This document shows positions 8,168-62,592 of a DNA stretch of 64,000 nucleotides, piece after piece. The position numbers and the translations under genes are program-made. The notes under the pieces are model-generated. The model did not search any database and was not told where the DNA came from. It saw only the letters and a program-made list of their open reading frames with translations. Position 1 is the first letter of the stretch. Every line of letters begins with the position of its first letter. The DNA lies in assembly GCA_008632985.1 (NCBI GenBank), contig QPGO01000081.1:186001-250000 (forward strand). Direction: 5' to 3'. Source of the DNA: Psammoneis japonica (lineage: Eukaryota).

Positions 8168-8809
8168 GCGGTGGGTATAGATGAAAAGAAGCACCTATTC
8201 TACTGTCTACTGTATGACTGTATGTGTACGGTAGTGCGGCAGAAAAATGAAACAAGTTCAAAGTTTGCCGCCGAGATCGATCGAACAGCAAGCTGGACAC
8301 GTCATCAGCCCCCACGTCATGATGTAGTCGCATTATTCCTTTGATTCGAACAAGTCATTAGATTGCAGCTCATCTCGTCGGTTTTGGTGTCGAGGAGTTA
8401 CATGCTTGTCATCCCTTTTTCGCATGGACAAGAGGAATTGAAATACATGGTAGTCGTTTTCTAAAAGTGCCAAAACAAAAAAAAGCTGCTCGCCTTCTGG
8501 CTGGGTCCTCCTTTTGTCCCAAGATTTTGGCGCATCGGCTTTGCACCAACACAAAAGTTGCTGCTGCTGATTCCAACTGGGTGTGGCCCCCATTTGCAGG
8601 GCTTCTCATCTTGCCCAGAGCAGGAGGGAGACACATTGTGTGGGTGTGCTCCAGAGGAGGGAGACATCAGCAGACATGTGCTCTTGAGTTGTTCCTGTTG
8701 GCTCAGCAGCAGGCCCACACTGAGGAAAAAACAGCTCCTTGAACATGAGCTGGCTGCCTGCGGGCTGGTGGAAAATGTTGTTTAGAGAGGACCTTGTGCA
8801 TTGTGCAAA

Positions 8810-10060
8810 AAATTGCACACAACATTCACATGCCAGACATCTTGCAGGTGTGCTTGTGTGGGATGACTGGTGGGGACAGTCGACCTCCAGAGATTGATTG
8901 AAGACAGACCCCCACCACTCCCTCTCCTGTTCTCGTCACATCCACTTTTTGATGTCAGCAGCAACTCACTCTCCTCAACACCATGCTTGTTTCAACACAT
9001 TTTCTTGTGCTGGTGCTGCCCTTCTCAGATGGTGCTCCTGCTGCCATGGCCCCTGCCAGCCTGCTGTTTCAACTGCTTCTTTTGTTTTTGCATTGATTGC
9101 ACAACTTTGTTCTTTTGCTGCAGCCCTGGGCCAGTCAACACTTTGCAGCAGCAATTTTTTGGCATTGGCAAATTTTGAGGGTTCACATGCTCACAGTTGC
9201 CTTTCCTGACAAATTTCTGCCAACAATGCACAGTTTCTGCATGGGGTTTGGTGCAAACTCTGCATGACTCACAAATCACAACTGACAACCAACTTTCATC
9301 CCATCTTGGAGCTTGTTCTCTTGTCATCTACACCTGACAGCTCTCAACAACAATGACTGTGCTCCTTCTTGCCATCTCAAACCAGGTTTCACAGCTCACG
9401 ACGTGCACCAAGCATTTTGCCTTTGTTTGTGGTTCAGCCCTTTTTGTGCATGTGAGATGATCTTTGGAGTCATTGGTGCTTCACCTGTTGATTGTGATTT
9501 TCCCACACGTTTCTCTGCTCTCAAGATCCAGCGCCAAACTCTGTGCATTTCAGAAACTTGTCACATGTCAGCAAAGACTCCAGCTCAATGTTGATCTCCA
9601 TTTAGCCCACACATCTGTCAGTCCTTGACAACCCCCCCCTCCCTTTTCCAACTGACAACTTGCTTGAGCCCCTCACATGTTGTGTGGCAGCACAATTTTT
9701 TCTTTTGTTGATGCACTCAGCAGATGCAGTGAGCAAAACAAAGCCACTAAAAAAAGCTCCCCCCTTGATGTCTTTTAAGTTGTCTTGCACACCAGTTTCT
9801 GCAGTGGGAAAGGAAGCTGCCTTCCCACCCAACTGTTGCTGTTTTCTTTTTTTGTGGCCATTTTTTAAAGTTACAAACAATGCAACAAACCCTGTTTTGC
9901 ATGCTGTGCTCATGCAGGCATCACCTGAACAAGGTGGCGCCAATTCCATGGCCAATGTGTGGCCAATTTTTCTGTGCACAAACAAACTGGTGTGCTGGAA
10001 GTGTGAGTTGGAAGATGCTGGCCTGGCTGGCATTGGAGCAACAGCACTGTGAAATGGATG
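8810..10060 (-). repeat. Diverged direct repeat, copy 1 (relic of an unknown gene; partner at 14875-16070)
   Basis: Collinear shared blocks, e.g. cacattttcttgtgctggtgctgcccttctcaga (~8996 / ~15045) and gtgctggaagtgtg..acagcactg..tgaaatggat (~9992-10059 / ~16003-16071). Confidence 0.8.
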
Positions 10061-10224
10061 AGGTTTTTTTGTTCTTGTCCATCTGAATGCTGTGCACCAT
10101 GCTTGAAGAATGAGCACAAACAAAAGCAGAATGAACAAAGAAAAGTGGAAATTATGACATTGGGTTTGGCTCTGTGATTTTGGGTTTCTCCAAATGAGCC
10201 CTCAATTGCGCGAAGCATTGGCGC

Positions 10225-13200
10225 TGTTCCTGCACAGCAAAGGCCTTTAGAAGAATCCAGTCATGACAACAAATTGTCTGGGGATGCAACCAAAATTCAC
10301 ATCTTGTGTGTCAACATTGTTCATCAGTCACACCTGCAATTGCAGATGTCAGATCAATTCTGTGCAAACAATCTTGCCTTTTTGCTCATCCACAATTGTC
10401 ATGTGATTGACGTGTGCAATGACACATGATTGTGAACATGTGTGACTCGTTCCACTTGGCAATGCATGCTGCTGCATTTGCCTTCCCATTTGCACATTGG
10501 AGTTGTTCATCAAACAGTGTAATTCAATGGACATTGACAGTGTCAGTGATGTCACCACATTTGATCTTCACTGTGCTGTTGGTGTGCACCACTGTCATTG
10601 TTCAGGATCCAGCACAGGGCTGTTCTGATTTTTTAGAGTCTTTCTCAAGCAATGTCTTTTGTGCACCTTGCAGGCCCACAGAGCATGTTGAGTGTTTTCT
10701 TGAGCATTGTTCTTTCTGTTTGCAGCACCTTGTCTTTGTTTCTAAATGAACTTCCAGCGAGCAATGTGTTGGACATTGAACATCATGTTTTGGCCTCAAA
10801 GCCAGTTGTCCTGGTGTGTGCAGCTTGCGCAGCAGCATGACATGTTGAATGTGCTGCAAAGGCCACTGCTGACAGCATTTCAGAAAATGGGTCTTCTGCA
10901 TCTAGAGGGGCATTTTGCAGGTTGAATGTGTGCAGCATGTTTCTCAGCACTTGATGCACATGCTCTGCAACAGTGCCAGCTTGTGGATTTTGTGCAGATG
11001 TGGGCTTGCATTTCACGCCACAGTCATCTTGAACTGCAGCTTTCAGTTGGTGTCTGATGAACTCATTTCCACAATGATGGGCAATGGACAATGGACAAGG
11101 ACGCCTGCTTGACCACATTCTTTCTGACAGCAACAACAGCTGTGGATTTCTTGTTTGGAATTTCCATGACTTCAAACCATTTGGTTGCTGGTTGATCATC
11201 ATCAAACATCATTTTAGGACTGGGGAGCTTTTTCTCACCCTTGCAACATGCTTTGCATGGTCCAATGAGATCCACACATGGTCTTTCCCATGGCACTGAT
11301 TCTGTGCACTTGACAGGCAAATGCCCACATTTCTTTTTTTTCTTTTTGAATTTCTGGCATGTCTCACATTTTGAAATGTGTTTTCACATGTCTTTGCACA
11401 AGGCAGACCACCGCAGGTGTTGTGAGATTGTCTCTTCTGTTTGATTTGTGCCAGGGTGCAGAAGGCATGCATGACGCCAATCCGCCACTGTCTTTTGTGA
11501 CTTCTTTGGTGCGATGATTTTTTCCTTGTGATGTGCAAGCATTTGGTCTTGCTTGCCTCCATGAAAAGTCTTTGTGCAACATGTTGCACCTGACAATTTG
11601 GAGAGAATTTCTTTGTCCAGTTTTTGTCCAGCATCAAGAACTTTGCAAGTCAATGGAAAGACAGTGTTGCAGGATTTGGGTGCAACCTTCTCAGCCAATT
11701 CTTCAGTGCTGAGGTTTTCTGTGGGTTTTGTTTGTTTTGCACCAAGTTGGCTGATTGCATCTGCAACAACATTTGCCTCACTCCCAAGACAAATCATTTC
11801 AGGGCTGCATCACTTGATTGTGAGATGCCAATGCGTGACTCTGTTCACAGCAAAATTCTCATGAGTCAGGTTTTTGTGACAGGTGAATGTTTTTGTCTGT
11901 TTGCCAAACAGTGTGTTTGGAATTCCTCAAGAGTTTCTGCAGTGGACAGCAGTTCTTTGTCCATTTTGGCACATTGCATCTGCACTCCATTCAGCTTTTG
12001 GCTGCAGAAGGCAATGGGTTGGTTGTCTTGTGACATGGCCACACCCAATTGAGAATTTCTCACATCTGCACATGTCTCAAAGGGTTTGTTGAAATTCAGG
12101 CATGACAATGATGTGTCTTTTGATGTGGCTTGCTCTGCAGTTTTGAAGGCGTTTTGTTCCATGATCATCCATTGCCACTTGAGCTCATGGTTGAGGTGAG
12201 TTTGGTTGGAGGAGCAAGTGCGTGATGTCATCAAGGCCACATGTCTTGATGGCAGTTTATCGTGCCAACAAAATGTTGCATTTTTTGCAAGTTTTGGGAG
12301 CAGCAATCAATTCAGTCCCCTCCACTTTCTTGGGAATGGGTCTGACACCTTGTCACAAAATGTGAAGTCCCAGACAGTTTGCTTTGCATTTTGTGAAAAA
12401 GGACTTTTCCGCATGGGCCCTCAAACCTGTTTGTTTGAGCTCTGCATGAATGCCATTTTGAGCTTTTGGAGGTGACCTTTGCAGCCACCTTTTGTCAGGC
12501 ATGGCATGTCATCAACATGCACCCTGACAAACACTGAGCCAGCCATGATGTTTGCTCTTGGAAAACATCTGGAGCTCCACAAATTCCCGTTGGGAGTTTG
12601 CAGTGCTCACATTTGCCCCACGGCATCACAATCACACACACAAACAATGTGTGCATGGTGTCAACTCAATGTGACAGCACCCCACATTTAAGTCAAGAGA
12701 TGTTGCACACATGAAGCCCACTTGGTGGGCTTTTGCAACACATCTTTGCCATTGGGAGGAGGATGTGAGTTGCACATTGGCCTCCGATTTGGCTCACAAA
12801 AGTCAGACAAGAACCAAACTCTGCCATTTTCTTGGTGCAAACAAAGGTTGGAGCTGCCTTTTCTGAGTGGTTTGTTTGTCTTAAAACTCCTCCTGGCTTG
12901 CGGAGTCTTTTGACTTCCTTTTGAGCAGTCATCTCCAGGACTTTTGTGGAGCAGGAAATGGTCTCACATGATGTGGGTTGCACCCAACTGCAAAATGTGA
13001 AATTGACTGGTTTTCCTTGCCACACACCTGAGGCACCATCAAAGAGGCATTTGAGTCTTTTTAGGAGGAAGCTCAGTTGCTTCTGCTCCTCTGGAGTAAG
13101 ATGTGTGGCTGCTGCAGTTGCATCATTGAGGCCAGCAGCATGACAGTTGGCATCAAGGATCCTGTTGACCCTGTCATTGAGAATTTTCATGGATCAAGAT

Positions 13201-14170
13201 TCCTCAATGTGATCAGCAATCAGCTTGAAAACCTTGGCATCAAAGAATGCATCTGCATTCTTCATTGGGGCAGTTGCATCTTTGTGTTTGATTTCCTCAC
13301 ATTGGCAAAATCAAGTGTGACTCTAAGACTGCTCATCAAGTTGCACCCCCCCCCCCCATGATCACATCATGTTGACATGAAAAAGTGGGAGTGCCGCCCA
13401 TGCATGCCATCTTCTCAATCATCTCATGTTTGTCAAATTTGGGCAACAAAAATTGCATCTTGCACTTGCTGTCAGTTGTAAAGAGCCCTCCCTTGGTTTC
13501 CCAAGTTTTGGCGGCGGACTCTTCAGTTCTCAATTTCCATGTGAATTTGTGAATTTGCACAAAATTGTGGTCAATCATGTTCCATGACCATCAAGAAGAG
13601 TGCACACAGATGCTCATTTTTCTCTTTCTCTGAGGAAGTGTTCATGTGAGCAACAACCTCTGGACCAGCATGTGAGTCACTTTGGCTTTTTTCAAGGCTT
13701 CCTGATGTCCAGCAAAGTGCAAGACTCCTTGACACGTGCCAGCCATTCTTCAGATTTGCTGCATGTCATTCTGTCAAATTGACAGTTTTCTTCACTGAGA
13801 GCATCAGAGTCAGAATTTTTGTCTTTGCACTTTTGTCATTCTCCAAGGAACTCACCTTGAGTGTTTTTGGGACTGCCTGAGTGATCATGGCATTCAACTC
13901 TTCCTTGTGAGAGGCACTTTTGTGTCTTGACACAATCATGTGCAATTGCCATTTGAACATTGCCATTTTGGGTTCTGCTCAATGTTCTCATGGCATTCCT
14001 TTGCTGGCCTTCTTTTCATGACCCAGCATTTGTCCATGTTGTGAGTGATCTTTTTGCAACAATTGCAAGACTTGTTCACCCAGTGTGGTTCCAACAAGTC
14101 ACAAACATGTTTTCATTGGCCAGAGAAGGTGGCCATGTTTCTCCCTCTTTGTCTCTCTACATTCTTTGCC
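10225..14170 (-). mobile_element. Degenerate Ty3/gypsy LTR retrotransposon (gag end-PR-RT-RH-IN), 5'-truncated
   Basis: CCHC knuckle CNCCKKITHNMDKC (~14026-14067); protease WETKGGLFTT..HDVIMG; RT entry ILDANC..LFDGASGVW; RNase H PIAFCSQKL..KELLS, ANVVADAISQL; integrase HPG, PWERPCVDLIGP, GNEF, NPQA. Possible PPT at 10477-10490 and 3' LTR at 10225-10476 (tentative). Confidence 0.9.
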
Positions 14171-14178
14171 ACTCCACT

Positions 14179-14184
14179 CACACA

Positions 14185-14215
<31 letters not shown>

Positions 14216-14217
14216 CA
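14179..14217. repeat. (CA)n microsatellite
   Basis: Interrupted CA run at the truncated end of the gypsy relic. Confidence 0.95.
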
Positions 14218-14874
14218 AAAGCTCTGTGACTCTTTTGGAGACACTCCTCTTCAACAAGTTTTGCATGTTTGTGGCTGATGTGCACCCCTCCAGTGTTTCT
14301 GCAATCACTGTGAGATTCACCAACAAGTTGCCAAGTCTCATGAGCAGAATCATCCAATCTCCCCTCTCAAGTTGAAAGCACCAGTGAATCAACTTCATCC
14401 TCAATGAAACAGGATTGCTGCTGGACCAAAAATGATGGCAACCACAAACGTTCTTTCCACAGAAGAGGGGGTCGAGTTGTTCATGCCAGTTTTGCACACA
14501 ATGAGTCATCTCCCATTCCACGTCAAACCAAGTTGTCAACCAATGACCTGCTGGATCTGCCCTTGGCCATTTCTGACCCATGTGGATGGCTGCGAGATGA
14601 GTCTCAAAACAACAGAGCTGTTTTGAATCATTTGAAACAGGAAAATGAACACACAGAAGCAAGTGCAAAGCACTTGGAGCAACTCAGGTCCAATCCACAC
14701 ACATGGAGAAATGAAGTCTTCTGTTCAAGAAACAGATTGCGCGGTGCCACAACATTGTGGGGATTGGTGCTGCTGCACAAGAACCTGTGAGGGCAAGAGT
14801 TGCACCACCTGCTGTCAGGCACCCAAAACCACAGACATGCTTGGTGAGATTGACTGGCGGGGCTGCAGCACAGA

Positions 14875-16070
14875 ATTGCACATTTTGCCAGGAGAACAAG
14901 TCTGTCTTGACTTGTGTGAGATAGATGATGGAGACAGTCCCAGAGATGGGTTGAAGACAAACCCATCCTCTGCTGTTCTTCTTGTCACATCCACTTGTTG
15001 CTTGACATCACAGTGACTCAATCCCAGCACCATGTGTGTTTCTGCACATTTTCTTGTGCTGGTGCTGCCCTTCTCAGACAGTGCTGCCAGCACCCTTGTC
15101 AGCCTTTTCAACTGCTTTTTCCATTGTTGGCACAAATTTTGTTGCAGTGTGTCAAGCAACACTTCGCAGCAGCAATTGTTTGGCGTCAAATTCTGTGAGT
15201 TTGCATGCTCACGCTTGGTCTTTTCTGGCAAATTTCTGCAAATGATGCACAGTTTTTGCATTGGATTGAGCACAAGCTCTGCACAATTCACAAATCATGA
15301 CTGACAATGACCAACTCTCTTGTCTCATCTCTGAGCTTCTCTTTTCATCCACACCTCTGCCAGCTCTCCTCAACAATGACTCTCCTTCTCTTTTCATCTC
15401 CTCAGGCCAGGTTTCACACTTCATGATGTGGCAAGCATTTTGCCTTTGTTGACACAGCCCTTTGTGCACATCTGAGATGATCCTTGCAAGTTGTTGGTGC
15501 TTCACCTGTCCAGTGTGATTTTCCGCACATTTCTCTGCTCTCAAAATCTAGCACCAAACTCTTTGTGTTTCAGAAATCTGCTGTGCTGGCAAAAACACCT
15601 GCTCAGTGCTGATGAGCTCCATTTTGGCCCATGTCTGTCAGTCCTTGACAACCCCCTTCCTCTTCCAATTGGCAATTTGCTTGAGCTTCTCACACTTCAT
15701 GTGCTGGTGAACTTGTTGCTTTTGTTGCTGCTCTCAGTGGCGACGTGAGCAAAACAAAGCTCTTCAAAAAGCCCCCCCACTCTCACATGGAAATTTCTGG
15801 CATGGACAAGGATGCTGCCTTGCCACCCAATTGTCAAATCTGTTTTTGCACTGTGCTTGCTTTGGAGTGACCATCCTTTGCTGTTTTGTTGTGCCGCCAT
15901 TTTTTTGAGTCACAAAGAGTGCAGCCAAACTCCGTTTTCATGCTGCACTCAGGGTGGCACCAATTCTGCGGCCAATCCTAGGTCACTTCTGCACAACCGG
16001 GGGTGCTGGAAGTGTGGATTGGCTGATGCCAGTCCAGCTGGCAATGGAGTAACAGCACTGGTGAAATGGA
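14875..16070 (-). repeat. Diverged direct repeat, copy 2 (partner of 8810-10060)
   Basis: See copy 1. Fragments translate similarly (VICELCRACAQ..HANSQNLTPNNCCCEVL vs VICESCRVCTK..HVNPQNLPMPKNCCCKVL). Confidence 0.8.
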
Positions 16071-16471
16071 TCTGGCAAGTGATGCGTTTGAGGGCGATGG
16101 ACAGATTTGAGGGCTGCAGGAGCGGTCGAACGATTCAAAATTTTCATTCACGCGAGGAGCAACGGAGATTGCTTTCCGACCTGCGGGATCAAAATGAAAA
16201 AGAGCCTCTCCACCATTGCCTTTATTAGACTGAGGCCGATTGTTTATTTGAATGAAATAGCATCTCAACCATCACTGACAGAAGTCGCCGCACTGAGTCA
16301 TGAAAAATGAGAGGACTAGTAGTACGGTACATCTGGAGGAAAACTATAAACTATGGTGGTCTTTCTAATTTTATATTCTGATTCTGACATACCGCGTTGC
16401 ACATTGCGTGGTAAAAAACAACAAACTGATTCTGAGCTTTCAAGTCTCATAGCATCCTCTCATGAGAAAAG

Positions 16472-17819
16472 CTAATACAGGTTCCAATAGCCCGTACTTG
16501 TAAAGTGCGCCGTCATGCAGTTCCACAAGCTAACAATCTCGCCCGACTTGGGGTGGTGATGCTGCGTAAAACACGTACCGGCACCAGCATTTCGGATATC
16601 AAAACGACGGGACGCCCAGTTCCAAGCCACCTCTGGTTAATATCATCCTCGTCGCAGGGTTGGTAGGTAATGTTCCTTCGCGAGGTTCGATCCAAGCAAC
16701 GGTCTTTACCAACAACTTTGATTTGGTCACCTTGGCCGGGTAAATAGACAAACTCAAACTTTGTAGACGAATCTCTACACTTTTCGACCTGCGGTGGGTC
16801 CTCATCCTCCAACACCACTTGGCCTCCACGTAAGTCTCCTGCCAATAGTATTCTAAGGGTTCCATGAAAAGAAAGTGTTATGCATAGTTCAAATAATGGA
16901 GAAAAGACTTACGCACAGACGTGTTCTTACCTCGTTCCCAATACAACTTGAGACGAAATCCTGGCTTGGGCATCATGGGTGGAGCAGCACCATCCGCCAT
17001 GTCATAGCAATAGTTCACAGATCTTGATTCTCTAGTACCTTCGCCCGTACAGCCTGGCACCTAAAGGTATTTCAAAAGCAGTACGGTCCATAATGGTCAG
17101 AGATACCACATGCAAGCTCAACATCGATGACTTTTCAATGCACTTACCCACTCGTTTCCGCCACGCTTTTGACAGCGTAAGTTTCCAGCACAGTCCGAGT
17201 CCCTTTTACAATTTCCTTCGCACTTTCGAAAGGGCACCTGTGACCTATCCAGATAGGCAAGGGTAGTTCGAGTCGGAGAACTGGTCGGCGACTCTGTCGG
17301 AGCAGGAGAAGAGGTGGGCTGAAAGGTAATGGTTGGCGACGCAGTTGGAGGTGCAGTGGTTGGACGCAGTGTGGGAGCTGGTGTACCGGTGGGCGCAGGA
17401 CTTGAAGTTGGTGACTCTGACGGTGCCGGGGACATTGTTGGCATCAAAGTGGTTGCGTTGTAACAATAGTCCTTGCCCCTTTCGGCAACTCCTGTACATC
17501 CGGGCACGTCTTCGTCTCTTCGGCGATCAAAGCAAGTGAGGCCCTTTCTGCACTGCTTATCATTGTCACAGTCGGCTTCGCATTCTCCAAGGCCTTCGTC
17601 AGGCCAGGCCTGACTATTTGGTTCGCCCACATAATTGTATTCATGAGTTGTTACTTCGCGAGGTTGAACCACATCAACAACGGTTTCTTCTGGTTCTGGC
17701 TCTTTTATCGGAATCGAATCCTCCTTTTGACGAACACCTGGGGCTGCAAATTCCAGGGCTACGACCGCATTTGGCCAGAACCATACGGCAAGAACAAATA
17801 ATAACTGAAGATAGCTCAT
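16472..17819 (-). CDS. Frustulin-like secreted protein (two acidic Cys-rich domains, Pro/Thr linker, C-terminal putative lectin-like domain); last exon has two apparent frameshifts
   Basis: Signal peptide MSYLQLLFVLAVWFWPNAVVA; CEADCDNDKQC..C..R...VPGC and CEGNCKRDSDCAGNLRC..VPGC; GT-AG introns 17061-17147 and 16853-16930. Exon 3 needs three frames to reach ..CFTQHHHPKSGE..TGYWNLY*. Confidence 0.8.
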
Positions 17820-20227
17820 GTTATACTTCACTTTTTCGCAAAAGATGAATCTGAGTAAACTGTGTGAATAAGAATTAATGCAAAAGGTCCAACGATATAG
17901 CAAAGCTCAAAGACGGCACTGTCGGCAAAGTGAAAGAGACCCCGTCAAATTGATGCCTTGCCTGTCAAGTGACACCTTTGGAAAGCAAGATGAACTCCGA
18001 AAAATGAGGAGAAGAGAAATTTTTCAAAAATGTCGTACTATTAGGAAAAAAGAGGATCCATTTGTCGTGACTGAAAATTAATATCAAGAAACCGGTATTC
18101 TACTTAGGAAGAGATTTAAATTTGAACTTGATGGAATGTGAACATTATGGAAATCTACCGCTCGTCGGTTTTTACTATCGATCATATAGAAAGAGTGTTA
18201 CTGTTGGGATTGTGAACAACCGTTGATCTTTGAATTCCACATTATATAACTTATCCATTCACAATTGCAATTTAAATTTTCATTCACACGTGACATATTG
18301 CAGAGATACAGATATTAATATGATATAAAGCTTTTAAAAAAATATTTTGAACCGGATTCCGCCCACAAGACTAACTGAGGCAAACAAAAAATTTTCCGGC
18401 GACCAAGAGACCGAGACAACCAAACCCATGAACCAAACAAGACTGTTATTTACAGGAATGTTTGGCGAGCAAGCATGAATATCATGCTCTGAGAGGAAAA
18501 AGAGGAAGTTGAAAAATTGAATCTCGAATTGAAGACTGGGACTGCTGAGACTGACTCATCCTCGGTGGTCGTGCGTGTTGTGACGAGATCGATCAGAGAA
18601 TGCCTATCATTCGTCATTCGATCACCAACGTCATTCCAACATTCCAAAAACATTGGATAATAGGCAAGTAATACCTTAGGCGACAGACCCTCTATGGACA
18701 GGCTCACAGTCAAGGTATTCGGATAATGATGATCAGCAGCCAGTAAATTCACGTACTGCATGTTTTGAAGGGGCATCTGTGCTTGTTCGTCGGTTTTGCT
18801 CTCCCCATCTTCCGCCGTTCAACTCTGTTGAAACCTTCTGTACGAAACACTTGAGTAGGCTCAGTGTTTTATCCGAGAAGTTTTCGGCACGGCTAAGACG
18901 ACCCTTTCTCAGATTCCCTACTATAGGCCTACAATTACATACACACACAAGTCTCAAGAATTTTGTGGCGACAACGGACTTCCTACCGTACACCATGCCA
19001 CTGATGGCACTAGCCGTATCAGGAATGAGCGTCGAGGAAATTTGTGAAAATCGCAACGAGGCTAATCGACACGACGCTCGCACAGTTTGGGGCTACTTCA
19101 TTATAGTACTCTGCAATCTTACAATTGCACTGGCTTGTCACGGCAGCAAGACCTCACGGAGAAAGCGCGTCAAAGCTACGAGGCACCAAGTGTCATGTCT
19201 TTTTTCTAAGCAACTTTGATGAATTGGATTTTCAGGAGTGTCGTTGATGGTTGCGGAGACAGTGCGCAGGCCTGCACAAAAATCAGTAAAAAAGGAAAAC
19301 GCTTGAATGTGATACAGACGAAGCATGCTGGTGTAGGTGTAGGCAGCTGTTGGTGCAAGCGATCTTTCTGGGCTATTTCGTATCTCGTTGGATGGGAGCT
19401 ACAGTTAGTTGGTGCGTGCAGGTATTCGAGACACACATGCCCGCAAGTTTTGGATCAGCCTGGCGGTGTTTCCATGCATGCACCTTGTGTTTTACAACAA
19501 ATGGCTTCAAACGTAAATCGTTTTGGTTTTAGCATTTCTGCTGGTAAAACCATTTGCTTTCATTGGTAATGCAAGGAAAGCCCACACACAAGGTGACTTG
19601 TATGGATCTCGCTTCTAAAAGACACAAGGAGTCCCTCGGGCCAATAATTTTGTAGAAATCCTTTTTATTCAGCCAAAGATGGAGACCGAGCTGACCTATT
19701 CATTCGAACTTTGATATCAGAACACTTGGTAAAGATGCCAGTCTTTTCGCGTTAGAGCACTAAACAAGCTTCTGGAGCCGTGCCTGTAGCAACGACGTCA
19801 CTAATTCACACCTTTCGTTGCTGCTTGTAACGGACTTCTCGGAAAAATGTAGACCGCGCACAGGGATACTGTAATAACGCTCGTCCAAACAACGGGCTTG
19901 TGCACCGTCACCTTTCGCTCTAAACCTCTTTAATAACTGAAACCTCTAAGTAGTCAAACGTAACTACCCAGAGAGCATTATGAAGCATTATGCACCTAGA
20001 AGTAACTTTTATGAAGTATTACCTTATGCATCTACCGTAACATTGTCAACTTCATGCATTTTTGTAGTCTATTTCATTTTGTTGTAGCCATGAATTCCAC
20101 TTCCAACCAATTTTTATTTGAGATCCAGGTAACTGTAAGCACAAAGACGAACAGACGAAACGCAATACTCATGAATCACTCTTTTCTCGTGTAGTCGCAT
20201 TCCATATGGCACAGCCTTGAATTCCAC

Positions 20228-24170: not shown

Positions 24171-24279
24171 GAGAAGTGCCCAGATTTGATTGCATTGCTT
24201 GCGTTCGTTGATTGAATCGGGCGATACAGCACGAGAAACGATCTTTGATCGATCCGCGACATCTCGGCGAGACGCCGCC

Positions 24280-51700: not shown

Positions 51701-54700
51701 GCCATGAATTCTTGGAGAATCCGAGATGAATCAGCACAAAAGGCTTTGCGTGGGTCCACTGCTTTAGCTCCATTCTGTCAAAGGAGACATTGTTGCTGAG
51801 CGAATGCGGCAGTTTTCCCTGGTTGGCGCTGGTTTTTGGCGCAAACTCTGTGGCATGAAACGAACACAACTTGTCGCCCATTGCGGCCGTCGAATGCTTG
51901 AATGGACCATCGCCCGAGGGAATCGGAAAGTTGTGACTGGTGCCGTGCAGACACAGCATTGCAGGAAAAGAGAGCGGTTCCGCCAGGTTTGCATTGCATT
52001 GAGAAGGGGGTGGAGCTGGTGGAGAAAGTGCCTCGGCTGTGTGGCAGCGAATTGGAAACTGCAGACCTGCGTGCTGAGAGAATGTCAAATTGTGTCGTGT
52101 CCAAACACACCTCCAATGTGCCAACAATGACGGCTTGGATTTCATTGGCCACCTGGCAGCATTCGTTGATGTTGCCACCGTGCTTGTCGAACTTGCATCC
52201 ATTGGCATTGAAGGCGCACTGTCATGTGTGGTGTGATGACTTGGGGTGAAGGCTGTCACCGATGGGTTCATTGGTTTTTAGACGCGAGAAATCTGTGCGT
52301 TGATCAGCCGGCGGATGGCAACTTTGTCCATTTAAAAGGGATTGCCATGCAGACACGTTTGCAGGAGAAGGGTTGCTGCTCATGATTGGGCCATGCTCCT
52401 CCGAAGAGAAGACTGGGGCTTGCAGCAAGGAAGTGGATTGGAGCCGCAGTTGAGAAAGAAAGGTCTGCACTTGCCAGTGCGTCAGAAAACCCAAGCAAGG
52501 GACAGGGAGGATGTGCACTGATGAATGTCGGGAGGGCGCCCAATGGTTTGTGGAGATGGGGGTGGCAAGATCCATCTCCATGCTAAAAATCCGAGTCTTT
52601 CCCATCGTCACTGCGGTCGGGAGTCTGGTTTTGGTTTTGTCGTTTTCTCGCAGGACTGGCGGAAGAAACTGACTGAGATGCTTGGAGCAACTGGATGATC
52701 TCGTTCATCTGATCTTGCATGCCTGACAGTTTCTCCGCATGTTGTGATTGCATGTTTTGCACTTCATTGGCATGTTCATCTCGCAGTTCACGAAGGGCCT
52801 TTTCATGACTGGTTTGCATTTGGGTCATGGCACACTGGACCTTGGCAAACTGAACGGAGGCAATCGATGAACTCGATGAGGATTGAGCGATTTGAGCGCA
52901 AGACGCTTGCGGAGACGTGATGCCAGGATGTCCAGTGAGACCAAAGTTTGGAGATTGAAATGATGGTGGGTTTGTAAATGTCTGAGGAGGAATGGGACGA
53001 GCTGCTGATTCACCGCGACCGGGAAGAGTGGTCCGACTGTAACCTCTGCCAGGCAAAGGAGTGGGAAGGCGAGCAGGGCGAGGAGCATCTTGGTTGGTCA
53101 AGGGAGACACATCTGAGAAGGTGAGGGACTCCAAGCTGTGGATGCTGGCAGACATGATGGACTTGCTTGCATCAGAAGCTTCGTCAAAAACCCCAGGCAC
53201 TTGAGGAAGATCATCAAATGGAGGGGACGGATGGGACTCTTTCAGAAGATTTGGGATTTCATTCAAAATGCATGCAGAAATCTCCGCTCGGGCCTTTTTA
53301 AAATGGTTTTGATGGACCAAAATGTTGTGTCTCCCGGTGGATGTCATGTTGGGGGAAGGAAAAATGTTGATCACACCTTCAATCGCTTTGATGTGGTTTT
53401 CCAAAAAGAACATCACATCCACAGAAGCACACAATGACGGCACAACAAAGGTGTTGTTGTTGCGTTGGGCTTGCGTTTTAACTGCGTTGTAGAAGGCGAG
53501 TGGAGACAGATGTCGAGTTTTTGCCATGAGGACGTGGGTTGGAAGTTTCTCGGAAGCATGTGACAAAGTTTTCGCCGCAGTGCGGTGATCATCTTGTTGG
53601 ACTTCGACAGAAAAGGTGACTGCACAGATGGGGACTGATTTTTTGTTGTCATCTGCTCGGACGGAAGTGGGGACTAGTCGGAACTTTGGCATCTTGGTTT
53701 TTAAATCCCCAAGGTCTTTGATGAACAACTCAGTCACAGCGTCGACAGGAGTGTGCTTTGAAGCGGCAGCAATGAAACATGCTGGACTGGCCATGTCGAT
53801 GACAGACTCATTCCAACAGTGACGTTTCAAACCAGTGTTGTTTGCCTCCAAAATACTTTGAATGTTGGGATGAGAATGAACATCGCAAAGGGGAACTTTC
53901 GCAAGGATACGATGACATGAACGGTGTGTGACCGGACGATTCTCACCACTCCAAGCAGTGGAGATCTGAAAATGACGTTCGTGCTGGAGAGTCGACACCC
54001 ATTCGGCAATGTCCACATTTGTGATTCTGGTGTTGTAGTTGTCCAAAATCTGAACTTCGTTGTGAAAAGTAAAAAGGATCTGACTGAGAATTTGAAGATG
54101 GGAGGTGACGAGGGCCATGGGCTCACAAGTCGCTTCTGGACCACGAATGTCAAAACGAACAGTTGTCTCTTCAAACTGTCGTTCTTTTGGTTTGGAAGAA
54201 GGTTTGAGGGATGCCAGGTCGACAGCAATGTCGTCAGCGGCGGTGGCATCTTTTTTGCATCAGCAGCATTGCCACCGGCAGTGGCGGAAGACGACGCCAT
54301 GGTGGTCGGTGTTTCTACGGTGAGCCTGGTGTTGAAACACGCAGGTAAATTCAATGCCAACAAATGCAGAAAAGTGCAGAACATTCTACAAAGGATGCAG
54401 AAGAAAAGGAAGAGAATCCACCTTTGGTGCAGACAGAGGCCATGGTTGTAGAATGGCTTGACAAACTGGAGCAGCATTTCAGAGATCATCCTGGAAGAAG
54501 CAGCCAAAACGTCACCATGTGCATTCTCAAAAGACATGATGTGGAGCATTGCAAGCAGGCTGATGAAGAATTGGCAGAGAGCACAGGAATGCCCGGTGCC
54601 ATTTTGGCATTCATTGATCCTGGTCCAGGAACAGAAGTGGACACGATGTGGCTGCTGGGGATTGTGACAGATGGGTGGGATTTCCTCCCGACAAGCAATG

Positions 54701-55400
54701 GAGAGAAAAAATTCACAGACAAGCCCAGGTTTACAGGGGACTTGCATCTGGCTCTGTGTGATCTGTGTGATGTGTTCCATTTTGAGGAAGAATGTGATTG
54801 GGTTTGCGCAAGCTGTGTTGAAGACACAGAGAAGTTCAACCCATTGCCTGGCCCATTCACAGGGCCAACATCAGCTCCTGTCATTGACCGAATCAAAGCC
54901 ATTGTGAAAAGAGAGTGGCAGACTGCCACAGCAGCTTTGTCTCCTCGTTGTGTGGCACTGATTGTGTGAGCGGCATGCCAGCTGTAACTCGGTCCATTGG
55001 AGATGCCAATTTAGCACCAGCTCTTCCCGTGGTGTTGATGGATGGAACTGAGTTGACGAATCTCTGTGGGCATTTGCTGAGTGTTGAAGCATGTCAACAT
55101 GGTCTCTCAAGCTGTGCAACAAAAGTGTGATTCCAGTCACAGCATCAATTGGGAAGAAGGAGGAGCATTTCAGGAAGCGGCCCAGATGCTCACCCAAGAA
55201 GCCTGCATTCATGGAAGCACAGAGACAATGTCAGAGTCTGTGTCATCACAACAGAACAGATTTGTGTTTCAAATGCATGGAGGGCATTCTTCTGTCACTT
55301 CACCAGAGCCCTTCATGCACCACAACTGTTCTTGCTCTACTCTGGTGCACATGATGGGCAAGTGGACCAAATTCTTGGAGCAGACTGAGTTGCAGCTCTG
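45740..55400 (+). pseudogene. Degenerate unknown ORF split by the LINE insertion (45740-46372 joins 54393-~55400)
   Basis: Its internal repeat DLVSATEKIPEPSAKDKEEKEEKPCLV is matched by DLVSAANKKIAEHSTK|DAEEKEENPPLV once the LINE is removed. Confidence 0.6.
46373..54367 (-). mobile_element. Apparently full-length degenerate non-LTR retrotransposon (ORF1; APE-RT-RNase H-Cys/His), resembling diatom Ambal-type LINEs
   Basis: APE: ILFGDF, THTRGSKRLDF, SDHRAHYVDF. RT: SGLHLGHWK, LRVIHIYEADF, TGQGSG, GCMDD, LELPKC. RNase H: SDGSV, SSHRAEAHG, WVKGHQD, LNVRADGLA. CxxC..EDRDHILRC. Flanking 25-bp direct repeat (24/25) at 46348-46372 and 54368-54392. Confidence 0.92.
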
Positions 55401-55483
55401 AGAATCGGGCTGTCAAAACATCGACATCATCTCTTGAAGAGTGTTGTGCCAGAGCTCCAGTGCAACTGCTTCGTTGTTCTCAT

Positions 55484-55567
55484 TCTCTTGTCATTTGTCT
55501 CCTTGGCTTTGTGTTGCATCATGGGTCTCTTGTCATTCATCTCCTTGGCTTTGTGTTGCATCATGGG
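55484..55567. repeat. 42-bp tandem duplication (a second short duplication lies at ~55696-55783)
   Basis: tctcttgtcatt(tg/ca)tctccttggctttgtgttgcatcatggg twice. Confidence 0.9.
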
Positions 55568-57009
55568 AAGAATCCACCCTGTGGAGGATCTGCTGCAGGC
55601 CAATGACACAGGAAACAAGAGCCAACTTGACACCAAGACAGACAATGGCATCATCAACACAAGACCCATTTCATGGCTGCACTCTGTTCCCAATCATGGC
55701 TGGCCTCCTGCCTGACAACTGCGCATGACCTCTTTTTATCGCCACAAAATGGCTGGCCTCCTGACAACTGTGTGTGACCTCTTTAACCTCATGTGTGGGC
55801 AAAGCAACCCACAAAAACTAATCACAAGCAACACAATTTTATTTTTACAACATTTGCGTCTTTGAGATCAATTGAACTTGCGCACAACAACTGACCCCTT
55901 GCTCGCACAACTGCGCCAACTGCATGACACCCATTTTCTCATCTGGTGGAACAGACAAAAGCAAGATGGAAGCTCCATTTGTCATTTTTTTCATCCTGTG
56001 GGATTGCAGCATCAATGTGATTTGTGCTTTTTTAATCACAACATGCAGGCTCAACTGTCTCCAAATCAACAACATCAAAGTGGAGCCACCCCAGTCACTT
56101 CATCACAGCCTCAAAAGATCCCTTGGATCCAAATCATTGCTCTGCTCAGCTGTCAGATGTTTTTGATGTCCTCATCTCAAATCTCTCCATCAGATGAAAA
56201 TTGTGGTGCAAATGATGACAGTGGGGACTGCACTCATGTCCAGGAGATCAAATGCAATGGAGACCACTTTGAGCTTGACAAATTTGACTGCTGTGCTCCA
56301 GCTTGCATGAGTGACAGAGCTTGTGAAGGCCTGTGAACAGACTGCATTGGATCAACCTTGTGTGTCTGTCATGATCACCCTCTGTGTAAAAACAAGCCCT
56401 CCAGTCTAACTCCCATTCTTGTGAAGCCCACACCAATTTGGCCAGATTGCTTGCTGATGGCCAAGAGGCACTTGTTAGCTTCACAGGCTTGACCTCCTGC
56501 ACAGGTGACAACCATGACATTTTGGCATCATCCAAGATCAACAGTGAGTGAGGCTTGTGTGACTGGGATGTCCAATGAATTGTTGTTTTGCATGTTGCAT
56601 TTACAGAACATGGGCAAGTTGCCATTTCAAGACACCCATGTTCTTGTGCGCATGTTGGGCATCTGTGTTTGGAGAATGGCCAGAAATGGCAGAGGCTTGA
56701 GAGTCAAAGGAAAGAGAACACTGCTCTTTGCATTGCATGTCACACACATTTTGCATCAATGGCTTCCTGGGAGAGAACTGCAACAAGTTGTCATTGGATT
56801 GCAAAAACTGAAACTGAGTGGTTTGGCTTTAGGATTTTTCCCCATTGAAAGCATTTGTGTGACACTTGAAGGTGGCTTCATTTGATTGCATGGATGTTTG
56901 CATCACTTGGAGGCGGCTTGTCAAACCAAAGATGATGTGAAACACTCTTTTACATCAATGTTGCAGTTTTGTCACTTCATTGCATGATGTGCAGATTGTT
57001 GCATTGAGA

Positions 57010-59210
57010 AAAACAAAACAAACCCAATTTAAAGTGCTGTCACACCTTTGCCCAGCAACACCGGCACCAGCTGACCCACACCTCTGGCACACCTCAATGT
57101 GGGTGCAGCAGAAGTAAATGCGATTAGCCTGAAGCAGCGTCTCCCTGAGGAGACACCCGATGGAAGCAACTGGTGATGGTGCGAGTGCCGCAAGTGCCAG
57201 CTTTTTGGCTTCTTTGAGACTTTCTTTCAGTCTAGGTTGGACCATTGAGATCCAATTTTGCACGTGCATTGTTGTGAAATTTTTATGATCTTCCACTGAA
57301 TCAAGCAAAACACCTTGGTCTTTAGCCAGGTGTTCTTGGCGTTTGTTGTGTGCAGCTGTCAATTCAGCCTCAACCTTTCATCGCTGGGACAATTTCCTTG
57401 AATCTGCGTCATGTCCTTGTGCTTGATGGTTGTGCTCTTCCCACAGTCCCCACCACTGTTTCCACATGAACAAGCCAATCTGAGCTGTCCAATTCGGGGG
57501 CTGTTTGTTCTCTTCTTGGCACTGATGAAGAATGCTGGAGTCCCGCAAACACCCGGACTGGATCACATTCCAAAGAGCAGAGTGCCTTCCACTGAACACT
57601 TGACGCCACCACCTGATGTCTGATTGAGCACACCAAAGGGCTCTGCAGCAACAACCCAAATCTTCTGGGCACATCATCATCTTGCCATTGAACCATGCTT
57701 GAATGGACTCCAACAAGAAATCTCATGGCATCGGCATTGCATCAATCTCATTGCAATGATGCCGCAATCCTTGCAAAAATTGCCTGCACCAGGGTTCGTC
57801 ATGGGGGCACCGCAGGATGTGATGTCTGTCCTCCATTGGATGCTCACAGAGAAGGCAATGGTGAGGTCAAATGGAATCACATCGGTTGACCATCTTGTTG
57901 GTGGGAAGAAGATCATGTGCCAGCTTGACTGTTCCAACATGTTGCTTGGAATGCCTTTTGATGAGAATTGCATGAGCTCCCCAGTCTGTCAGATCGATCA
58001 CTTCTGGATGCCACTGGCTTCACTCGAGAATGCATTCTAACAGTTGCGGCGCAGCAGCAGCGCATCTGACATGCCTTTTATGGCCTGCTGTCAATGTGCC
58101 ATCCTGCAGGCTCAAATGCGAGTGACAATGAGGGAACGGTGAGACCATTGAAGCATCTTAATCACAATGTCCTTGGTGGGTGCTGGCTGTCCTGTCAGCT
58201 TGTATGTTGACTCTCACGTTGAGTGGAAGTGTGTGAACTGGAGCATGTTGGTCTTGATGTCCTTTAACCCACTGTGCTGGCAGCAGAGATGAGGATGCAT
58301 TGGACTCACTGAATTCCTCCATTGCCATGCAAGAGTGCAATGTCTTGTTCACAACGTCCAAATCTGAGGCAAGGGCACCAGCTCCATGGTGGCAGACATG
58401 AAAATCTTGGGCATCATTGGATTGCCCCCCAGGAGCCGGAGCCGGCAGGTTCAGAGTGATCTGTTGCAAGCAAAACACCACTGCCTTGTCATTGCAATGC
58501 ACACCCAAATCCAGAAACTTGCTGACTTGGCAACACTCAACAAATCTGCAAATGAAGTGGCAAATTGAGAGGATCCCACATGCTTTGGCTTGGCAAGATG
58601 AGGGACATCTTCCAAAAACTGGTCCGGCACAATCTGCCAACGGGGTTCCTGCTGACGCAATCGTCCAAGCGAAAGTGGCTCCTTCATTGACAGACCCATC
58701 ACTCCCTGCAGTCAATGTCAAGGACAAAAAATGTTGAACCAGTGTGTCCAGGGGGACATGAAACTCAAGGTCTTTGAACAATGTTGACTCCCATTGTGGC
58801 AAGGATTGCAGCATGTCTTGAAAAGTGTCCCCGGAATCCCAGAAATCTGTGGATCAGATGAGGCAGTGTGTGGGATGTCGAACATCCATCAACCGTCTTC
58901 TGTTGTGGAGAGTTCAACTGGAAATGATTCTTCAGACAGGACTGGCACTGTTTGCAATTCCACAATGGTGTGTCCATTCTGGTGCCATTTGCTTGTAACA
59001 TGTTGCACCCTGAAGGAGACCGAATGCACAAACAATCCTCTGATGGAGAAAACATGCGGCTGCTTGCATGCACATCTTGGATGGCGGTGCCAGCCAATTG
59101 CCAAGGGGCTCTTTCAGTGTCTGTGATCTTGGTCTGCACAAAGACACACAAAACTTCTTCCAAGTGTTCTCCACACCCCTGGACCTGGTTCATGTTGCTC
59201 GACGTCATTC
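57010..59210 (-). mobile_element. 5'-truncated, more decayed copy of a related LINE (RNase H to 3' end)
   Basis: LQSLPQWES, GSDGSV, SSCQAKACG, WVKGHQD, NWISMVQPRLKESLKEAKKLA parallel the 46373-48500 part of the full element; similar 3'UTR. Confidence 0.88.
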
Positions 59211-62200
59211 AAAGCACTGACGCTGCTGAATTAAAAAGAGGAGATGTCACATTCAGAGGCAACCACCCACTTCATTCAGTTGCAAATTGTGAAGCTTTTC
59301 TCAGCAAACAGAGGCACACAGTTTGGAAGCCCCATCAAGAAAAGCTCTGTGAGCATTCAGTCACACTGTGGAGTGCCACTCTCAGTGCAAGTCCCACTCA
59401 TCTGCTTGGGGTGGAAGAACTCTGTCTTGGCCCCATGTGGGTTGAAATTGCACACATCAAAGAGACTGCTCTAATGCATGCCTGCTCCAAATGCATGATT
59501 TGCATGTCTGCAATGGCAACGTCCTCCAACAACATGTGCATTGCTGCCACCTCCATGAAGCGTGGTGGTGGAGTGTCCAAGGTTGATGTCTGCAAGTTTG
59601 GTTCTTGTGGTCAGAACAAAAACAGTTTGTCACTTGTCGACACTGTGTCCCAGCATCTCACAAGAAGCAACTTCTTGTCATCTTCTGCAAGCAGTGCTGA
59701 CAGTTTGCAAAACAATGCACCACCAGCATTTGACTCACTGGCAGCTGCAGTGGCTCCGCTGTTCACTGACACACACTGGTCCGATGATCATGAGTCTGAG
59801 GATGAGTTCAATCCTTGCACATTGGAAGTCCGTGTGATTGCACTGATGTCAACAGAGAGCATGGTTGTGAGGCTCTTAAATTTTGTTGCCCAATGGCTGG
59901 GCAGTTTGCCACCAGAAAACCCTCCTGTGTTAAGAGCAAGAGCTTGAGCAGAATTTTTTGGGATTGTTGGGCCAAGGGCCTGGGTCATTTTGCAACAAAT
60001 CCACTCACTGTGCAAGTGCTGCACTCAGTTCATCCTGTGTGGCATGAGAAGAGTGTGGATCTCTGGAAAATGTCAAGTGTGAAGATGATTGTCAAAAAAG
60101 GTTGCATGTTGCACAAGCATCATTGTGCAAAATGGCAAAGCAAACAAAACCAGTGAGAACATGGGCAAACACAAGTGGCTTTAACTGAAATGCAGGCAGA
60201 CTTCACACTGGAAATGGTTGTTCCTTTTCATCATTGAAAAATGCCCTGGCTTGTCAATTTTGTTGCCTGTGATGCAGGAAAGCAGGGTTTTGACTGCCAT
60301 GCTTTAAGAAGCCAAGATGATGACTGCCTGGGGTTGCTCACTTGGGTGCAGTCAATGCACCAATTGGCTTGCCATGCATCATCCCATTTGGACCAACCAA
60401 GCACAACATTGTGGCATTTTGTCTCAGTGTGTCTTTTGCTGTGGACATTGTTGTGTTGTGAAGCAAAAAATGCAGAGTGCAGCAGCTGTGCAATTGAGTG
60501 CGGCTGCCAGCCATGGAGGTGATTGAATCCTCCACGATCATTGATCTTGCTGCTGCTCTGTGGATTGATGAGTGCAGTGTCAGTTGCAACTGCAGTGCTG
60601 GCACTCATTCAAAAATTGTTGACTGGGGTGTTTGGCAAGTTGTGGCCATGGCAGCACAACAAATTCTTTGTTCAAATGGCGCCAATTTCAAGTGTGGTCA
60701 GTTGGCAGAGTCACAACAACACAGCCAAGCAGCAGCCAAAAATGGGCAAAGCCATCCCAAAAAATTGTGGAAACTTGTGCATGCATCACCAAGACCCGCC
60801 TGATGGGGCATCGGCTCCAGGACTTTGTTGAGTGGCACAAGTGTGGCTTGACAAGTGCAACTCAACAGATGGGTGCTGCAAAACTCAAACATGCTGTGCA
60901 CTGATGAGCCATTGCAACATGTGTGGCACTTCATCAACAAAAAAGATGCAATGTGCACACTCAGATTCTTGGGACCAGAGAGGTGTGGAGCCAAAGCATG
61001 TTCCCACATCAAGAAAAACACAAAAAAAGAAGTTGATGTGATTCACAACAAAAGCAGGTGCTCAATGGACTCACAAATTGCCACCATGAGTCAATTTGGT
61101 CTCTCTTTTTCAGCAATTTCATGGTTGCATCACCCAAGTGTTGCAGGCAGCAACTGGAAGATGCATCTGTGCAAAGGGCAGGAAAATGGCCACCCATGCA
61201 GAATCTTCTCAAGGTGTTCACTCAAACTGCCCAAATTGAGCACACAATTTTCATCAATGCTTGCCAGCGTGGCCCGAAAGACACTTGTTCCTGTCATCAT
61301 CCCATTGGAAACCAATCATGACTTAGAACTTTGGCCCATGTGAGCTCAAAAGCATCCACTGCAGAGTGCACAATGGACATTGACAATGATGTCAAATGCT
61401 CACCACACTGCAAAGTCACCTGGTCTGGGAGTTTCCAAGTGCTGCAGTCATTGACAAAGCCACCAAACAAAAGCTGCGGCCTGATCAAATTCTAAATTTC
61501 AAAAAAAATGTCCCTTCTCAAGCCATTTTCATGTTTTCCCCCCTCCCAAGTTGCTCTGGAAACCAGCTGACACCAGATTGCATGTCAGGAGTTTTCAGTG
61601 CATCCACAGAATTTTCAGACACTTTGTTGCAGAAAGACGAGTGCTGTGTGAGTGACAAACGAAACAGCCTGTCCCCACCTTCTGGGGTTGCCACCAAATT
61701 GCTCTGGAGTCATTCATGTCTGCTTGTTGCCCATCATCATTTTGCTCAGACAAATGACAAGAATCTCTTCACCAGCAAAAACACAGCAACTGACAACCCT
61801 GATGCAATCTTTCGGAAAGCAAAGATGGCAACGAAATTGCTCAAAATCTGGATTTTTGTGTGCCATGCCCATTCACAGCAACTGGTCTTGGACAAAGATT
61901 TCACTGCATGGTTTCTTGCCAAGGCCATTCCAGGGGGTGGTTGGTTCTTGCATGCCCAGCTTGTCACACAGTTGCTCCATCCTGCGGGGGTGCTGGATTG
62001 CCGTTGGCCACAAAAGTGGAGCTGAGGTGCTCGAAACAGCACAAAAGCAAGAACTTGGCATCAATGTCATCATTGTTTGAAATGACATCATCACAAGCTG
62101 AGAAAACCAAAGCAGTGTCACTTGTGACTTGGATGGTCAACTCCTGCAATGTCTCAAAAGTTCAGAAGGCAAAAGACATCTTAGAAGCAGAGAGTGACAA

Positions 62201-62592
62201 AAACATCACATTGCCAGATTGAGACAATGCCGCCATCATGGTGCCCACTTTGCATGCTGCCACATCATGTTGCAACAGTGGCGATCAGCACCTTCTTGGC
62301 ATCAATGCCAGAACACCTTTGTCCAGATGGGCACCACACAAAGGCGCTGACAACTTTGCAGTGCTTGTTTGCCGGAGGAGCCACACGTTGACCCACGCAG
62401 TTTTTGTGTGGCCTTCTGGGCACTGGGCTGAAATTGTTGATGTGCAACACACCTTAAATCATGTTGTGACAAAGGCACGGCTCTGTGGGACTCAACTGGA
62501 CTTAGAGATGTTTTGACATCAACCAAAAAGCAAGCACGAATCCACAAGAAAGAAATCTTCCTTCGCTTGGGGCAGCGATCAGAAAGTCAATA

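Follow-up and report, generated by a model that had tools for sequence, protein, structure and literature searches.

The closest described counterpart of the pattern reported here is the hypermutation of the dinucleotide TpA in the chlorarachniophyte alga Bigelowiella natans, where 231 of 302 mutations in mutation-accumulation lines fell in two silent integrated viral regions, nearly all of the viral-region mutations being A>G or T>C and all lying at TpA (Mettrop et al., bioRxiv 10.64898/2026.01.13.699255). According to the accessible part of that preprint, the TpA rate was ~6e-7 per site per generation in some lines only, ~1000-fold above background, TpA-depleted coding sequences were enriched in reverse transcriptase (RT) and DDE domains, and the authors put forward a homologue of ADAT2 as agent; diatoms are not mentioned in that part (10.64898/2026.01.13.699255). 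Here we describe a 64-kb stretch of the diatom Psammoneis japonica (assembly GCA_008632985.1, contig QPGO01000081.1, forward-strand positions 186,001 to 250,000; hereafter "the window", numbered from its first base), in which five blocks of mostly transposon DNA have lost almost all TpA. The pattern is probably the product of a domain-limited process at the DNA level that turns TpA into TpG or CpA in transposons, their flanks and dead gene duplicates, on top of methyl-CpG decay. Our literature search turned up no earlier diatom case of this kind of hypermutation, which was experimentally described only in 2026, in another lineage; its footprint here is by far the strongest.

As far as the accessible text of the preprint goes, the window resembles B. 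natans in that TpA changes to TpG and to CpA on both strands, in that discrete regions of foreign or silent DNA are affected (here five presumably silent blocks with edges of at most 350 bp), and in that the mutation runs towards GC, against the usual bias of the genome; RT- and DDE-type sequences are affected there. Unlike the rhizarian B. natans, the host is a stramenopile. The targets in the window are retrotransposons, flanks and dead gene duplicates rather than viral inserts, and the window records a long-term footprint where the accessible account of B. natans reports direct measurement. Erasure is near-complete, with observed/expected ratios (o/e) for TA of 0.04–0.08 against the rho of 0.45 given for the viral insert, and it is co-extensive with CpG decay, which that part of the preprint does not treat. 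For diatoms, the consulted text of a mutation-accumulation study of Phaeodactylum tricornutum gives CG, CC and TG as the contexts prone to mutation and contains nothing about TpA (PMC6604790). Many diatoms, P. tricornutum not among them, have DNMT4, of unknown function and possibly related to RID, a factor of fungal repeat-induced point mutation (RIP), according to the accessible part of the source (PMC9998398). Our literature search returned no description of TpA erasure in diatoms, and a search on diatom nucleic-acid deaminases gave nothing usable. The first-pass annotation of this DNA, made from the sequence alone, had known of no description of such a process; that stands for diatoms, within our search, but not for eukaryotes generally, given the B. 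natans preprint.

Block limits were drawn from the positions of TA, which follow a two-state pattern in 1-kb windows over the 64-kb window. The erased blocks are as follows.
8463–16222: block 1, TA o/e 0.047, CG o/e 0.155; holds a minus-strand Ty3/gypsy long terminal repeat (LTR) retrotransposon
21465–24224: block 2, TA o/e 0.043, CG o/e 0.236; no content assigned
26855–31107: block 3, TA o/e 0.064, CG o/e 0.185; contains copy A of a duplicate, besides fragments of genes (tRNA_bind, F-box)
33665–37137: block 4, TA o/e 0.040, CG o/e 0.198; erased part of duplicate copy B
44162–62502: block 5, TA o/e 0.083, CG o/e 0.465; two diverged non-LTR elements (APE/RT/RNase H-like)

Together the blocks cover 36,587 bp, which is 57% of the window and 68% of the interval flagged by the first-pass annotation. 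That annotation had described five TG/CA-rich, TA-poor blocks over half of the window, as recomputation bears out, and its sample counts (2 TA and 3 CG in 10801–11400; 11 TA and 21 CG in 1021–1320) are exact. Inside the blocks we counted 164 TA (o/e 0.07), 684 CG (0.33), 4012 TG (1.72) and 3867 CA (1.73), compared with 1071 TA (0.57) and 1465 CG (0.95), and o/e values of 1.21 for TG and 1.20 for CA, in the 27,413 bp outside. The density outside predicts 1429 TA inside against the 164 found (Fisher P = 3e-230), an 8-fold depletion, while mononucleotide composition is equal on the two sides and GC is unchanged. Neither AA nor TT is depleted (o/e 1.24 and 1.21 inside versus 1.15 and 1.17 outside), and runs of (TG)n or (CA)n are negligible (140 of 36,587 in-block bases). 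The block edges are sharp, the switch being completed within 100–350 bp, and six of the ten lie 237–425 bp from the nearest end of an open reading frame (ORF) of at least 250 aa. The domains of TA loss coincide with those of CpG decay, sharing edges to within ~100 bp. The TA-erased domain is slightly wider (~100 bp) than the CG-decayed one; the outermost ~100 bp of several TA-free blocks have normal CG (16122–16222, 21465–21565 and 37037–37137).

The direction of change can be read from a 2.6-kb duplicate shared by blocks 3 and 4.
27383–29538, plus strand: duplicate copy A, entirely within block 3
35492–37650, plus strand: duplicate copy B, erased to 37137 and unmutated from 37138
From 37138 onward, copy B is normal DNA comprising the promoter and first 67 codons of ORF 37450–39906. 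With this unmutated copy (37160–37640, 481 aligned bp) taken as ancestral, its 28 TA sites have become 10 CA and 9 TG in erased copy A, with 4 kept and 5 otherwise changed, and its 14 CG sites have become 10 CA and 1 TG, with 1 kept and 2 otherwise changed. Folded over both strands, A>G occurred at 21 of 54 TpA sites (39%) but at 8/110 ApA, 6/62 CpA and 3/64 GpA sites (5–10%). The enrichment of A>G at TpA for which the first-pass annotation had proposed a check is thus present (21/54 versus 17/236 at other A), and transitions at TpA exceed those at other A or T with an odds ratio (OR) of 7.9 (Fisher P = 5e-8). The per-base excess at TpA is ~14-fold, similar to that at CpG; by 3' neighbour, folded C>T changes number 14/29 at CG, 6/62 at CA, 8/39 at CC and 9/49 at CT. 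An error-prone polymerase of the Pol eta type, listed as a candidate in the first pass on the strength of its WA>WG motif, would produce A>G at both TpA and ApA, and is a poor fit to 8/110 at ApA against 21/54 at TpA and to the undepleted AA and TT. GC-biased gene conversion was considered separately and is ruled out: the dinucleotides AA, TT and AT show no effect, and CG has decreased rather than increased.

This spectrum sets the window apart from RIP, a genome defence of fungi. Both are irreversible transition hypermutations of repeats and their near flanks with a strong dinucleotide context. RIP, however, consists of C>T mostly at CpA, creating TpA and AT-rich DNA, whereas here TpA is destroyed at constant GC: C>T at CpA is found at only 6 of 62 sites, TpA is depleted 8-fold, and the polarised changes are the reverse of RIP, as the first pass had anticipated. 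The duplicated segment 37138–37650, adjacent to the erased part of copy B, keeps normal TA and CG though it is copied in block 3, which indicates that homology alone is no trigger.

Nor does methyl-CpG decay suffice. In diatoms, transposons carry DNMT5-dependent CG methylation according to the accessible part of the source (PMC9998398), and its decay explains the CG>TG/CA component of the blocks (CG o/e 0.16–0.47; 11 of 14 polarised CG sites changed to TG or CA). It accounts for that component only, since it cannot remove TA. Between 46 and 54 kb, TA o/e is 0.02–0.16 while CG o/e is 0.50–0.87; TA is therefore low where CG is largely retained, and the two losses are separable, in line with the original argument that CG methylation explains the loss of CpG and not of TpA.

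The process acted on DNA after insertion, as seen in the retrotransposon of block 1.
8741–10059, minus strand: LTR of the block-1 element, pairing with 14791–16071; erasure runs 278 bp past it
14791–16071, minus strand: second LTR of the element; erasure runs 151 bp past it
11869–12306, minus strand: RT-RNase H ORF of the gypsy element (PF17919), containing PIAFCSQKL
12508–12519, minus strand: RT catalytic box of the element, reading HVDD
Aligned over 1107 bp, the two LTRs show 75% identity. Among their adjacent double mismatches, TG in one copy against CA in the other occurs 26 times (next commonest type, 6), and two in-block duplicate pairs show 33 (next, 4) and 9 (next, 2) such doublets. 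These doublets indicate that each copy took its own hits at ancestral TA or CG sites common to both. Both strands were affected equally (TG 4012 versus CA 3867 in the blocks; 9 TG versus 10 CA in the polarised set), and runs tests on doublet orientation in the three pairs detected no strand runs (P = 0.42, 0.20 and 0.58), giving no sign of long single-strand events.

Context-dependent transition hypermutation also inactivates mobile elements in animals, through APOBEC3 (G>A) and ADAR (A>G). Those enzymes work on single-stranded cDNA or RNA before integration and leave strand-biased clusters; in the window the change is post-integration, strand-symmetric, and extends into non-element DNA. An ADAR-like A-to-I editing of element transcripts before reverse transcription, by which copies would arrive already edited, is accordingly very improbable. 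ADARs are, to our knowledge, a metazoan family. They favour a U 5' of the edited A, as the accessible text of the B. natans preprint notes (10.64898/2026.01.13.699255), and retroelements make up most of the affected DNA; yet the hits on the LTRs of the pair, and those on the duplicates, were independent of each other, the strands are equally affected without runs, and erasure reaches into the flanks past both LTRs and over the genic DNA in copy A.

Loss of TpA has rewritten the proteins that the elements encode. Apart from the gypsy element, which has the RT-RNase H ORF and a weak integrase match, coding remnants of two further elements lie in block 5.
46338–54870, minus strand: least-decayed element, ten ORF pieces, the longest of 558 aa
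56584–59212, minus strand: older second copy of the same family, collinear with 45871–48565; CG lost too; contains SSCQAKACG
These two non-LTR elements are collinear over 45.9–48.6 and 56.6–59.2 kb, and one of them has a weak APE match and an RNase H motif. Of the 166 ORFs of at least 90 aa inside the blocks, 161 were scanned against Pfam (the five that straddle an edge were dropped), and the only matches were RT_RNaseH, a weak integrase, a weak APE, and tRNA_bind and F-box fragments. Tyrosine (Tyr) makes up 0.4% of residues in the block-5 element ORFs and 0% in the gypsy ORFs, with cysteine (Cys) at 4.0% and 5.4% and histidine (His) at 4.6% and 5.0%, respectively, against 2.6% Tyr, 2.2% Cys and 2.2% His in ORFs outside the blocks. 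In five homologues of ORF 47318–48970, Tyr accounts for 3.4–4.7% of residues (1.0% in one of them). Ten columns carry Tyr in two or more of these homologues; there, this ORF has His at 5, Cys at 1, Phe at 2, Ala at 1, Met at 1 and Tyr at none, while it keeps control residues at 7 of 12 Phe and 7 of 10 Trp columns. In the gypsy RNase H, all three Tyr-dominated columns read Cys, the one in PIAFCSQKL among them (Phe kept at 5/6, Trp at 2/2), and measured against an outgroup of 42 un-erased loci, the gypsy element keeps none of 7 majority-Tyr columns. The RT box reads HVDD where YxDD is expected. Across these comparisons Phe, Trp and Pro controls are mostly kept and Tyr is replaced mostly by Cys or His, which indicates that the ancestors were not TA-poor. 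The first-pass observation that conserved Tyr appear as Cys or His therefore holds at Tyr columns defined by an outgroup, and the peptides on which it drew are present (PIAFCSQKL at 11992–12018, SSHRAEAHG at 47930–47956 and SSCQAKACG at 58575–58601, all on the minus strand).

Conversion of TA makes no stop codons, because TAA and TAG can become only TGA, CAA, TGG or CAG. Long frames in the blocks (551 and 558 aa within 46338–54870; stop frequency across the blocks 0.029 per codon) are thus relics of recent coding capacity and not evidence of function. The same frames are what might be cited in favour of element families that are naturally TA-poor through intrinsic composition or selection, but they are expected anyway under a conversion that cannot create stops. 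Such an intrinsic origin is highly improbable given the Tyr content (0–0.4% against 2.6% in the genes of the window and 3.4–4.7% in homologues), the replacement of catalytic and conserved Tyr, a TA o/e of at least 0.5 in 46 of 50 related loci (described below), and the erasure of a genic duplicate as well. Since the frames stay open, gene callers emit long Tyr-less "proteins" from erased copies.

Survival of TA depends on the flanking bases. Estimated as the count inside over the scaled count outside, which assumes that the ancestors of the blocks had an outside-like composition, survival by tetranucleotide is 0.012 for ATAT, 0.019 for GTAC, 0.023 for CTAT/ATAG, 0.028 for GTAT/ATAC, 0.058 for CTAC/GTAG, 0.06 for ATAA/TTAT, 0.20 for TTAC/GTAA, 0.21 for CTAG, 0.38 for TTAG/CTAA and 0.57 for TTAA. 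An additive one-flank model fits these values. The flank test has few polarised sites (26), and the gains of products hint at TAC>TGC, with inconsistent results for +1 T and outside-like ancestry again assumed. In the least-decayed element, TA survival of ~0.15 against ~0.7 for CG suggests, on the same assumption about ancestral composition, that TA is converted several times as fast as CpG decays. The activity also appears to have persisted. The polarised list includes TG>CA double changes, one of them at the ancestral ATG of the duplicated ORF; we infer that ordinary G>A mutation created a new TA that was then converted, in keeping with an activity that went on rather than coming in one burst.

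The same signature is found in other public sequences. The 150 public representatives nearest to the gypsy RNase H ORF (P0126–P0275) include 18 with less than 0.7% Tyr; Cys plus His stand at 9.05% in these, compared with 4.56% in the 124 that have at least 2% Tyr. Tyr-less predicted proteins among these relatives reach 699 aa, so erased transposon copies have been called as genes publicly. Metagenome contigs were searched with the longest of them (P0173, 699 aa, no Tyr), returning 50 loci, none of which shares DNA similarity with the window by blastn. TA o/e is at least 0.5 in 46 of the 50. The block pattern recurs in one locus (L025), which covers 22 kb of a contig 31.5 kb long.
L025 7401–13480: TA o/e 0.18, CG o/e 0.44
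L025 19901–22118: TA o/e 0.15, CG o/e 0.73
L025 flanks: TA o/e 0.63–0.66, CG o/e 0.83–0.86
Its flanks encode MsrA and a RUS-family protein, which identifies the contig as eukaryotic. At majority-Tyr columns, L025 keeps Tyr at 1 of 17 (Cys at 4, His at 5) and P0173 at 0 of 18 (Cys at 9, His at 5). The same element, at 98.8% identity, is present in a different assembly (L024). The 55 differences between the two copies fall at 8 of 49 TA sites (TA against TG or CA), 15 of 120 CG sites and 32 of 4194 other bases; residual TA is therefore ~10-fold more variable than background (OR 11.6, P = 2e-6) and as variable as CpG, which likewise speaks for a persistent activity. In a further metagenome contig with a related element (L040), otherwise normal, we noted a TA excess (o/e 1.5–2.0) at 3001–3500 and 8001–9000.

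The erasure is lineage-specific. Eleven of the 50 loci combine CG o/e of at most 0.40 with TA o/e of 0.52–0.79, and since they retain TA, CpG decay proceeds in those lineages without TA loss. This bears on a passive heterochromatin bias, in which no dedicated editor exists and TA decays slowly alongside CpG because a lineage-specific spectrum of polymerase errors or lesions (with T:G or I:C intermediates at TpA) is repaired in active chromatin and not in silent, methylated chromatin. Such a bias is unlikely, although some observations fit it: the blocks are old, with transversion differences of 5–9% between copies (9% between the LTRs), the ~14-fold TpA excess per base is similar to that at CpG, and TA and CG loss have common domain edges. 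It is, however, not general for methylated repeats, as the 11 CpG-decayed loci of other organisms with normal TA indicate; TA loss runs far ahead of CG loss in the least-decayed element; and the B. natans spectrum, raised 1000-fold, regionally and only in some lines according to the accessible part of the preprint (10.64898/2026.01.13.699255), points to a regulated activity.

A sequencing or assembly artefact, such as miscalls at modified bases, is extremely improbable. The public run in which the stretch was found (X1) contains 89% of the sampled words of 28001–38000; its short contigs, at a word depth of ~60, lie on 26001–39000 and differ from the window at 0–1 positions in the pieces listed, one of which spans the edge of block 4. 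No RNA run was listed as containing the stretch. The depletion is thus reproduced in short-read-type data, as the first-pass annotation had asked of raw reads. Although X1 is a single run, contigs from two other assemblies carry the signature as well, and 18 of the 150 closest public protein representatives are Tyr-less relatives.

The second process that the first pass had proposed, separate from CpG decay and driving A:T>G:C at TpA in repeats and dead DNA, is upheld by the polarised duplicate, the independent TG/CA doublets, the Tyr-to-Cys/His replacements, the TA loss without matching CG loss and the B. natans spectrum. As we envisage it, A:T>G:C transitions on either strand would convert TpA to TpG or CpA once integration or duplication had taken place, and the activity would persist so that new TA sites are erased again. 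Conversion would be at least as fast as CpG decay and flank-dependent, with TTAA largely spared and ATAT, GTAC and ATAC almost gone, and would end within 100–350 bp at the domain edges, a few hundred bp from neighbouring genes. The outcome would be irreversible inactivation, in which all Tyr codons become Cys or His codons and TA-containing signals are lost while GC stays constant and no stops arise. By analogy, the process would be of the same kind as the TpA hypermutation of B. natans. It is presumably enzyme-driven and guided by silent chromatin, and may serve as a defence. The leading candidate agent would be a TadA/ADAT2-type adenine deaminase acting on DNA, by which A would be turned into inosine, read as G. 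TadA and ADAT2 act on A34, the base that follows the invariant U33, and base editors derived from TadA prefer TA; a preference for a 5' T agrees with such an agent without being specific to it. Alternatives would be a modified thymine at TpA, the site that 5-hydroxymethyluracil prefers in dinoflagellates, or a modification of adenine that is symmetric across the palindrome TA.

Several points weigh against this reading. The polarisation is limited to one 481-bp segment, with copy B assumed to be ancestral, and the flank that matters may be −2, where a purine would be preferred, or +1, where a pyrimidine would be. Given the age of the elements (9% LTR transversions), a ~14-fold bias over a long time would be enough without a burst. 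The silencing of the blocks is deduced from CpG decay and dead ORFs. L024 and L025 could come from the species of the window itself, and X1 may be the source sample of the assembly, so that it excludes a long-read miscall better than it provides independence.

Some further features of the window were noted. The sequence at 38962–39730, within ORF 37450–39906, is an imperfect tandem duplication (72–77% identity) with a GC content of 0.58, a strong negative GC skew, and normal TA and CG, from which we conclude that repetition in an active-looking gene draws no TA erasure. In block 3, the duplicated 5' end of ORF 37450 continues into the tRNA_bind fragment (29233–29730), and an F-box ORF at 30809–31168 straddles the block edge at 31107. 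The long out-of-block ORFs 1022–4540, 17118–17903, 20228–21202 and 37450–39906, one of which is 1172 aa long, match no Pfam family. The best named relatives of the out-of-block SelO ORF are 56–59% identical and come from raphid pennate diatoms (Cylindrotheca, Nitzschia and Seminavis), none being closer in the database. Over the FAD/BBE oxidase gene at 31600–33450, X1 contains two haplotypes with many single-base alternatives, each at about half of the doubled depth (~60 of 110–130), compared with ~60 over the flanking erased blocks. The organism is hence diploid and heterozygous there, and the erased blocks may be haplotype-specific or too diverged for co-assembly.

Relative to the accessible part of the B. 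natans report, the window adds sharp edges that TA loss and CpG decay have in common, with the TA-erased domain ~100 bp wider, erasure beyond the LTR ends, the sparing of an active-looking neighbour gene and of TTAA, persistence, and speed compared with CpG decay. The process is invisible to scans of GC content, and maps of TA o/e are therefore advisable in diatom repeat annotation and in the dating of transposable elements. More tentatively, and with slightly more doubt than belief, we propose that diatoms and chlorarachniophytes, and possibly the wider assemblage of stramenopiles, alveolates and Rhizaria, might share a defence in which DNA bases are edited under the guidance of chromatin, an "adenine counterpart of RIP". 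It would continuously erase TpA from silenced DNA faster than 5-methylcytosine decays, would have gone unnoticed because it is GC-neutral and stop-free, and would kill elements through the loss of every Tyr codon and every signal containing TA; one ADAT2-like deaminase with activity on both A and C might contribute to the loss of both TA and CG. The case described here would itself carry a genome-defence-like mutator, known until now from a single rhizarian alga, over to the diatoms. Since this major group includes species that can be transformed and crossed, the hunt for the enzyme would become directly testable.

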